From: an uncultured Anaerolineales bacterium
GTDB lineage: Bacteria; Chloroflexota; Anaerolineae; B4-G1
Length of the DNA: 35,216 bases
Assembly (NCBI GenBank): GCA_964568065.1
Contig: CAZMOT010000020.1
Location: 1 to 35,216, forward strand
Direction: 5' to 3'
Made by a program: the position numbers and the translations under genes. Position 1 is the first letter of the stretch. The number at the start of each line of letters is the position of its first letter. Below, in pieces: positions 18,115 through 18,672 of this stretch. The notes below the pieces were generated by a model. That model did no database searches and was not told where the DNA came from. It saw only the letters and a list, made by a program, of their open reading frames with translations.

Positions 18115-18672
18115 TGTCCGAGCGTCAAGCCACTTGGGCAGCGAAGGTATATACACAGTGATGATCCGCAACGTTCCTTGGGGAGACCTGCCGCACACCA
18201 CATGAATGGGGTAACCTGTAACCCCGTAGCCCAGGATAAGACAACTAGGCCCTCTCGGATCGTTAGGCGCTTATAGCGCCGACAGCGACAAAATTTTGTC
18301 GATAAGTGCAAACCATTGCACTCCAAGCGCCCTCTTGGCAACTGCCCCGAAGGGGCCTCATTTTCCGGGCGCAGTCCCGGACAATGCGTAGTGCCTAAAC
18401 ACTGAAATTCTTGTACATTGAGCAAGAATTTTAACGCAGAGCCGCAAAGTCGCAGAGGGTTTTCCTTCTTTGCGTCTCTGCATCTTGGCGTCTTTGCGTT
18501 GAATCCTTTTTGGTTCCGGTTCGTCCGGGTTGGGATAACTTTTGAGAATCTCCGCGTCAAGCAAAGCACGTTCCGCGTCAGCAATCAGTATCCTGTCGGC
18601 CTGGCGCTCTCGCTCTGCGTGTTCGGAGAATTCGTACTCTCCTGCCTGCACCTGAGTTCGAATCGAATCCAA
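18115..18672 (-). pseudogene. DUF4258-family toxin split into an N-fragment (18507-18672) and a C-fragment (18115-18264) by a ~240-bp insertion
   Basis: N: MDSIRTQVQAGEYEFSEHAERERQADRILIADAERALLDAEILKSYPN... C (other frame): ...[53 protein letters not shown]. Both parts match the DUF4258 consensus. The stop overlaps the YgiT RBS. Confidence 0.6.
18265..18506. repeat. Hairpin-dense ~240-bp insertion (MITE-like or small structured RNA) interrupting the DUF4258 toxin gene
   Basis: At least seven perfect hairpins: GGCGCttataGCGCC, CGACAAaattTTGTCG, GTGCAAaccaTTGCAC, GCCCCgaaGGGGC, CCGGGcgcagtCCCGG, AAATTCTTGtacattgagCAAGAATTT, GCAGAG...CTCTGC. No coding potential. Confidence 0.5.

Follow-up and report, generated by a model that had tools for sequence, protein, structure and literature searches.

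Transposases of the IS200/IS605 type insert DNA next to a short fixed motif, with no inverted repeats and no true target duplication (PMC3119063, PMC10055086, PMC3201880). IS608 recognises subterminal hairpins, and its insertion 3' of TTAC neither gains nor loses DNA (PMC3201880). Two groups of small palindromic elements depend on such enzymes: PATEs, which are IS200/IS605 derivatives moved in trans by the Y1 HUH transposase TnpA (PMC3119063, PMC10055086, PMC3201880), and the REP, REPIN and BIME mosaics, which are mobilised by RAYT transposases (PMC3116915, PMC3337134, PMC3733652). Here we analyse a stretch of 35,216 nt from an uncultured Anaerolineales bacterium (contig CAZMOT010000020.1 of assembly GCA_964568065.1; hereafter the window), in which a hairpin-rich block of 267 nt interrupts a DUF4258 toxin gene. 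The block is an insertion relative to intact orthologues, with base-precise junctions. We consider it probable that it is a non-autonomous, protein-less, mosaic palindromic mobile element composed of two modules, A and B (Table 1). To our knowledge, such elements have been little catalogued in Anaerolineae.

We delimited the insertion by comparing the toxin gene with uninterrupted relatives. Both parts of the toxin lie on the minus strand in the same frame. The N-terminal part ends ...EILKSYPN, and a single frame continues across the junction (...AEILKSYPN-PDEPEPKRIQ...GTAPGK*) and later reaches the C-terminal part, which ends RTRARR*. The 267 nt correspond to 89 codons, include two in-frame stops and separate the Asn codon of the toxin from its Asp codon. 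Joining ...SYPN to DPRGPSCL... in silico yields a protein of 101 aa, whose match to Pfam DUF4258 spans profile positions 1-70 of 71 (E=2e-20, 73.3 bits against a cut-off of 25). We found 302 homologues of the joined protein, and the closest twelve (75-88% identical) read YP[D/N]DPRGPSCL without interruption across the junction. DNA alignments to three orthologous loci (L014, L016 and L017) and to a syntenic locus (L055) each contain one 267-nt gap at the same point. The gene order of L055 is that of the window: two epimerase genes, DUF4258, the antitoxin, a DegT aminotransferase and a glycosyltransferase (GT2). An earlier annotation of the window, made from the sequence alone (the sequence-only reading), had described the two toxin halves as recognisable, separated and frame-shifted, and had proposed comparison with an uninterrupted orthologue. 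The comparison bears out the first two points, since both halves are parts of one DUF4258 gene with a syntenic orthologue, and contradicts the third, as the halves share a frame and are separated by an insert with two stops. The same reading had placed the block at 18265-18506. Each junction has a GTT (AAC on the minus strand), which makes the boundary ambiguous by 3 nt, so that 18265-18531 describes the insertion as well as the coordinates in Table 1 do. The proposed right edge falls about 25 nt short of 18528/18531 in the orthologue alignment.

Table 1. Coordinates of the inserted element, its modules, motifs and hairpins, and the genes of the interrupted toxin-antitoxin module
Feature	Position	Strand	Description
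Inserted element, 267 nt	18262..18528		DNA and protein alignment to uninterrupted orthologues; virtual excision restores DUF4258
Module A, 129 nt	18263..18391		Six short perfect hairpins in a row; in the window and L007, absent from L031
Module B, 137 nt (137-140)	18392..18531		9-bp-stem hairpin, long imperfect hairpin and small CCGG hairpin; at all three loci
Motif TTAGGC	18263..18268	+	Left end of module A; GTTAGGC with the preceding G
Motif GCCTAA	18393..18398	+	Inverse of TTAGGC; first bases of module B; start point of L031
Right junction GTTGGG	18529..18534	+	GTTAGG in L007 and L031; Pro-Asn codons of the toxin on the minus strand
Hairpin 1	18266..18280		GGCGC-TTATA-GCGCC; at terminus
Hairpin 2	18286..18301		CGACAAAATTTTGTCG; perfect 16-nt palindrome
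Hairpin 3	18305..18322		7-bp stem
Hairpin 4	18323..18338		5-bp stem
Hairpin 5	18344..18356		GCCCC-GAA-GGGGC
Hairpin 6	18364..18381		6-bp stem
Hairpin 7	18405..18431		9-bp stem; invariant in all three copies
DUF4258 toxin pseudogene, N-terminal part	18532..18704	minus	Ancestral ATG 18704; alternative TTG start 18672
Toxin C-terminal part	18100..18261	minus	DPRGPSCL...RTRARR, then stop
5-bp tandem duplication TCGAA TCGAA	18658..18667		Absent from all orthologues
YgiT-type zinc-finger antitoxin gene	17854..18096	minus	In-frame TGA at 18022-18024

Copies at other loci carry the case for mobility. A metagenome scan with a 20-mer of module A returned one true copy, at 3179-3449 of Ga0114922_10011649 (L007), and six chance matches (L008-L013). 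The L007 copy is 90% identical to 18263-18534 of the window, has unrelated flanks and lies among housekeeping genes, between an open reading frame (ORF) of no known function and a polysaccharide deacetylase gene. An exhaustive HMMER protein search with all six translated frames joined returned only the element's own ORF and P0123, a spurious 97-aa ORF. The latter led to Ga0079367_1051413 (L031), where positions 226-365 correspond to module B alone, the right-hand 137-140 nt of the element. This copy has 97.8% identity to the window and lies 44 nt downstream of the stop codon of proS (prolyl-tRNA synthetase). The element is therefore known in a long form (A+B; window and L007) and a short form (B only; L031), and the three loci have nothing in common beyond it. 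The GC contents of L007 (60.3%) and L031 (58.6%) are close to that of the window (60.6%). The host belongs to Anaerolineae (Chloroflexota), and its nearest named relatives by rpoC are 82-86% identical, with 86% to a metagenome-assembled genome named ‘Anaerolineae bacterium’.

Assembly breakpoints point to several copies in the same communities. Three Logan contigs run into the element from its low-coordinate end, and each stops at 18315, 30 nt past 18285, the sole base at which module A of the window and that of L007 disagree. From the opposite end, five contigs run as far as 18502, 30 nt short of 18532, a position with G in the window and A in L007 and L031. Logan assemblies are built with k=31. 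Breakpoints 30 nt from the distinguishing bases are those of branching in a k=31 de Bruijn graph if samples contain both L007-like and L031-like copies. This indirect evidence suggests that copies travel together in eight independent runs, most simply in one genome.

Other searches returned no further copy. We compared the element and each module by blastn and nhmmer to the window and 57 loci (427 kb), without finding copies beyond those described; within the window the element is single-copy. A scan of species representatives in a genome collection with an 18-mer of the left end gave 12 matches, all chance and about the number expected for an 18-mer. No match was obtained in a word-indexed protein search with one translated frame, a weak negative because the search also missed a 181-aa ORF of the locus known to be in the collection. 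Phage and plasmid collections (blastn) and six viral-contig scans contained no copy, only a look-alike motif of ~40 nt in L034 (see below). We also saw none in the 10 kb adjoining the window, taken from ENA contig ERZ25073496 NODE_133 (79,442 nt), of which the window is the last 35,216 nt. The sequence-only reading had raised a mobile miniature element as one alternative, and had named a multi-copy check with a search for target-site duplications as the way to examine it. That alternative is supported by the dispersed copies, the assembly breakpoints and the toxin halves of a single gene. The block is not confined to one locus, since it recurs in L007 and L031 and the breakpoints indicate co-occurring copies; the check itself gave no second copy in the window, copies at other loci and no clean target-site duplication.

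That only three loci are known would also fit an element that does not move, whose similarity among loci arose by recombination, gene conversion, filler DNA from repair or assembly chimerism. The discordant divergence of modules A and B described below does show recombination between copies or something similar. Against this, the insertion is assembled identically in independent JGI and ENA assemblies (L001, L002, L004, L048 and L049), its junctions are base-precise relative to orthologues, and the three loci have only the element in common. We regard an immobile or artefactual origin as exceedingly improbable.

The element is unusually structured. We counted exactly seven perfect stem-loops in it, with stems of 5-9 bp and loops of 3-9 nt, when the stem had to be at least 5 bp and the loop 3-10 nt. 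This agrees with the earlier description of at least seven, one with a 9-bp stem, which is hairpin 7. Dinucleotide shuffles had 2.0 +/- 1.4 stem-loops and reached seven in 8 out of 1000 cases. Module B also forms a long imperfect hairpin with arms at 18430-18457 and 18476-18503 that are 79% complementary, and hairpins stand at both ends of the element (18266-18280 and 18514-18526), 0-4 nt from the termini. The fold z-scores of the element as RNA are -5.5 (+ strand) and -5.1 (- strand), and those of the modules as single-stranded DNA range from -4.0 to -5.8 on either strand. In a sliding fold scan of the 35-kb window in stretches of 270 nt, the element ranks second out of 260. The first-ranked stretch (12691-12960) has a z-score of only -3.4 with 200 shuffles and was dropped. 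The GC content of the element is 51%, below that of the window. Stops occur in five of its six reading frames, and the remaining open frame is broken by indels in L007.

Some features of individual hairpins were recorded in passing. Hairpin 5 followed by CTCATTTTCC (+ strand, 18344-18365) has a simple intrinsic-terminator pattern, although shuffles of the region also give one. At module B, CCTTTTTGG comes after the long hairpin in two of the copies, those of the window and L031, and is lacking there in L007. The look-alike motif in L034 (IMGVR_UViG_3300014202_001126) is ~40 nt long (CTTTGCGTCTTTGCCCCTTGGCGTCTTTGCGTTGAA) and is present in at least 10 dispersed copies on both strands within 12 kb (e.g., 2411-2453, 3902-3937, 8359-8396, 9521-9562 and 10239-10271), at least one of which (9521-9562) is directly upstream of a ribosome-binding site. 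It is 81-91% similar to one arm of the long hairpin (18462-18508 of the window), and this arm of module B may descend from a family of short repeats with many copies elsewhere.

The two modules have diverged to different extents. Between the window and L007, module A is identical at 127 of 128 positions (one difference), whereas module B has 116 matches out of 133 (17 differences) and 3 indels (Fisher p=9e-5). The switch comes at 18392/18393, exactly where the short copy L031 starts. The closest relative of the window's module B is that of L031, with 134 matches out of 137 and three differences. This discordance indicates that the modules have different histories: module A may move alone and home to the outer end of module B, copies may recombine, or module A may be under selection. 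The element has just two TTAGG/CCTAA sequences, each at a module boundary, compared with 0.31 per kb over the window. Among the three copies the motif tags each module boundary, with GTT(G/A)GG at the right junction. The tetranucleotide GTAG directly precedes module B (18388-18391). One reading of these data, which we consider distinctly unlikely, is that A and B are distinct elements with a common TTAGG/CCTAA-tagged recognition and that A homes to the outer end of B, or alternatively that A is functional cargo on B, such as a guide-RNA-like or protein-binding array of hairpins. Homing of A would explain both why A is nearly invariant where B differs by ~13% and why a copy of B without A exists. 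If either version were true, it would reveal, in Chloroflexota, a previously undescribed system of target-specific hairpin elements that might work with a HUH or recombinase partner not yet recognised.

The conservation of module A while module B drifted could also reflect selection on an RNA, and the sequence-only reading had offered an RNA gene as its second alternative. The block would then be a structured RNA gene, or a self-splicing or self-cleaving RNA (small RNA, ribozyme, small intron or guide-RNA scaffold), whose DNA copy inserted into the toxin. The very stable predicted fold and an insert length that is a multiple of three are compatible with this, and the one-sided changes in L007 favour G-U pairs on the minus strand (6 pairs kept versus 3 broken). 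All seven short stems are, however, perfect Watson-Crick pairs and fold equally well on both strands and as DNA; such strand symmetry is the look of palindromes at the DNA level. We found no promoter-like site. There were no Rfam matches at gathering scores in the whole window, and at E<=10 the region 18000-18800 gave only chance-level matches (best 11-18 bits against thresholds of 36-80). RNAalifold detected no compensatory double change on either strand among the three copies of module B. The Rfam and covariance check suggested by the earlier annotation thus yielded nothing in favour of an RNA gene. The junctions also fit neither class of intron. A group I intron was rejected because, across the four possible registers, the 5' exon ends in C, A, A or C (not U) and the intron in T, A, A or C (not G), and a group II intron because GUGYG...AY is absent at every junction register; Rfam gave no intron match even at E<=10. 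Splicing would in any case not rescue the toxin, which carries other lesions. We judge an RNA origin very improbable.

The sequences at the junctions bear on how the element was inserted. On the minus strand, CCYAAC directly adjoins the module B end in all three copies. The repeats flanking each copy are imperfect (CCCAAC/CCTAAC in the window, CCTAAC/CCTAAT in L007 and only TAA in L031). Terminal inverted repeats do not exceed chance: comparing each end with the reverse complement of the other gives a score of 5 for A+B and 4 for B alone, while the mean of shuffled sequences is ~5.4. Without terminal inverted repeats or a clean target-site duplication, the element is not a miniature inverted-repeat transposable element (MITE) in the strict sense. 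It could nonetheless be a classical MITE of a DDE transposase, with a short target duplication of 3 bp (TTA/TAA) or perhaps as much as 5-6 bp, and with inverted repeats that either have decayed or are very short. TTA/TAA flanks are exact in L007, where the repeat extends to 5 bp (TTAGG), and in L031, and those of the window (TTA/TTG) have one mismatch. The size, the lack of an ORF and the AT-enrichment relative to the host are likewise typical of MITEs. We nevertheless find this explanation unlikely, as the short form has only one end in common with the long form and neither form has inverted repeats. The recurrence of CCYAAC beside the B end in three out of three copies points to strong sequence specificity and not to duplication of an arbitrary target.

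The junctions also resemble integron recombination sites, whose core consensus is GTTRRRY with the inverse core RYYYAAC. A tyrosine-recombinase unit similar to an integron cassette would cross over at G|TT, between an element core GTTAGGC and a look-alike target (GTTGGGA/ATTAGGG), with module B as the recombination site and module A as cargo. The left junction GTTAGGC fits the consensus at 7/7 positions and GTTGGGA and GTTAGGG at 6/7, module B begins with GCCTAAA(C), a 6/7 fit to the inverse core, and its 137 nt fall within the size range of attC sites. Such an event would account naturally for the two flanking hexamers not matching, and it would leave no duplication. Module B was rejected as an attC site on its fold, which consists of two independent internal hairpins without complementarity or paired L''/L' boxes next to the R-like boxes. 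In L007 the inverse-core-like motif is ACCTGAA, and ATTAATG, at the left junction of the short copy, is a poor match to the core site. The window and its adjacent 10 kb, L007 and L031 yielded neither an integrase nor attI nor a cassette array. An integron-like origin is therefore quite improbable.

We return to a mosaic palindromic element as the best description of the block. We propose that an enzyme encoded elsewhere moved it in trans, recognising its hairpin ends with their TTAGG/CCTAA tags, and that the arrival of the element in the window would have inactivated the toxin gene. By analogy with described systems, the likeliest candidate for the mobiliser is a HUH (Y1) transposase acting on single-stranded DNA, of the IS200/IS605 or RAYT type, an assignment that we make tentatively. 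We favour such an enzyme because the element has hairpins at both ends but neither inverted repeats nor a clean duplication, and because a fixed motif adjoins one end, a similar motif adjoins the other, and its two forms have one end in common.

Several observations weigh against this proposal. Pfam annotation of the window, the next 10 kb, L007 and L031 revealed housekeeping genes only and no transposase, recombinase or integrase, and we found no autonomous parent with the same ends. The terminal hairpins lie 0-4 nt from the ends of the element, while the cleavage sites of IS608 are 19 and 10 nt from the feet of its hairpins (PMC3201880). The flanking pairs CCCAAC/CCTAAC and CCTAAC/CCTAAT could instead be a decayed target duplication of 3-6 bp, and three copies are too few to distinguish a fixed adjacent motif from a decayed 3-bp duplication. 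We infer movement from the distribution of copies, and only three loci emerged from the metagenome, genome, six-frame protein, phage, plasmid and viral searches, so that either the copy number is low or the host is poorly sampled. Apart from the mechanism, a count of seven stem-loops is not unique to the element, as a few GC-rich coding stretches of the window have 7-8; the case for the element therefore rests on the fold energy, the clean insertion and the other copies.

The insertion is one of three lesions that distinguish the toxin-antitoxin module from its orthologues, and all assemblies of the locus agree on the three. A toxin gene followed by an antitoxin gene is common to L014, L016-L018 and L055. 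In the window, the two in-frame stops brought by the insert truncate the toxin after residue 47. The second lesion, the TCGAA duplication, places the ancestral start MSERKDHIELDWIR out of frame with the rest of the toxin. The third is in the antitoxin gene, where the codon at 18022-18024 is TGA versus TGG in orthologues (TGGTGGGGC -> TGGTGAGGC) and cuts the protein short after 24 residues. The repaired antitoxin scores 36.5 bits against TIGR03831 (cut-off 20.2). The whole module is a pseudogene. The toxin was probably inactivated first, by the insertion or by the 5-bp duplication, with decay of the antitoxin following. We suggest this order because losing an antitoxin is not safe while its toxin is still active; a dead toxin leaves the antitoxin free to decay, and the TGG-to-TGA change fits this. 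The 181-aa ORF called across the element (18039-18584, minus strand; P0121/P0122 in NCBI, ENA and JGI records) uses a frame other than that of the toxin and is almost certainly spurious.

We also noted features of related genes. The syntenic toxin gene of L055 (2001-2375, JGI Ga0315277_10003887, protein P0009) is intact but carries a different insert, a 39-nt in-frame palindrome (...AGATTCCTCGCTGCGCTCGGAATGACA..., translated KRRFLAALGMTNG) located 3-5 codons downstream of the insertion point in the window. The toxin loop around this point seems to tolerate or attract small palindromic insertions. The window encodes another pair of toxin-antitoxin type, a nucleotidyltransferase (Polbeta) and HEPN, at about 14070-14760, and a Macro/DarT pair is found at L044 16912-18818, ~7-9 kb to the left of the window start.

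For annotation, the locus should be recorded as a dead toxin-antitoxin module and the 181-aa gene call treated as spurious. It provides a small, clean case of a toxin gene inactivated by selfish DNA, after which the antitoxin, no longer useful, would have decayed. To catalogues of mobile elements it adds a two-module palindromic repeat from Anaerolineae that lacks terminal inverted repeats, and its boundary motif TTAGG/CCTAA offers a concrete handle for finding the mobilising enzyme. The element is new and low-copy, but it belongs to a general kind that is already known and is ordinary in its consequence. Only its modular, discordantly evolving architecture and its boundary motif are mildly unusual, and neither the element nor the locus overturns current understanding.

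We compared the element with described families of small repeats. Rickettsia palindromic elements (RPEs) are also palindromic, also lie inside protein-coding genes and also have lengths that are multiples of three. RPEs keep the reading frame open and are translated, whereas the element kills its host gene, and a Rickettsia-type in-frame element was rejected on account of the two in-frame stop codons. Integron cassettes are similar in their junctions (left and right fits to GTTRRRY of 7/7 and 6/7), in the GCCTAAA located 137 nt upstream and in the absence of a duplication, and toxin-antitoxin genes are frequent neighbours of integron-type systems. The element differs from cassettes in having no attC-type hairpin with R and L boxes, no integrase and no array, and its GCCTAAA is not conserved in L007. 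Like BOX of Streptococcus pneumoniae and RIME/ERIC, it combines modules in different ways, folds strongly and has no ORF or identified transposase. Those families belong to a different phylum, have no sequence similarity to the element and are abundant in their genomes.

The resemblance to REP and BIME sequences (PMC3116915, PMC3337134, PMC3733652) lies in the mosaic of short palindromes and in the modular long and short forms. The long hairpin of module B consists of two inverted imperfect copies of a ~28-nt unit, as in REPINs. Two of the three copies are, like REPs, extragenic and near gene ends, and GTAG is found at the A/B boundary. REPs, however, occur in tens to hundreds of copies, usually with one type of palindrome, whereas the element has six different palindromes and three loci. 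One copy lies inside a (pseudo)gene, unlike REPs, and we saw no RAYT gene in the DNA covered (the window with its adjacent 10 kb, L007 and L031). The PATEs (PMC3119063, PMC10055086, PMC3201880) provide a further comparison. Unlike PATEs, the element has no IS200/IS605 relative with matching ends in that same DNA, no guide/cleavage-site pairing recognisable by eye and no Rfam match to a TnpB or IscB guide-RNA family, its copy number appears low, and its hairpins abut its ends instead of standing 10-19 nt from the cleavage sites, as in IS608. Like PATEs, it is a few hundred nucleotides long, lacks an ORF, terminal inverted repeats and a clean target duplication, bears hairpins at both ends and is inserted next to a short motif (CCYAAC before the B end in 3/3 copies), with a similar motif at the other end, so that its flanks mimic a duplication.

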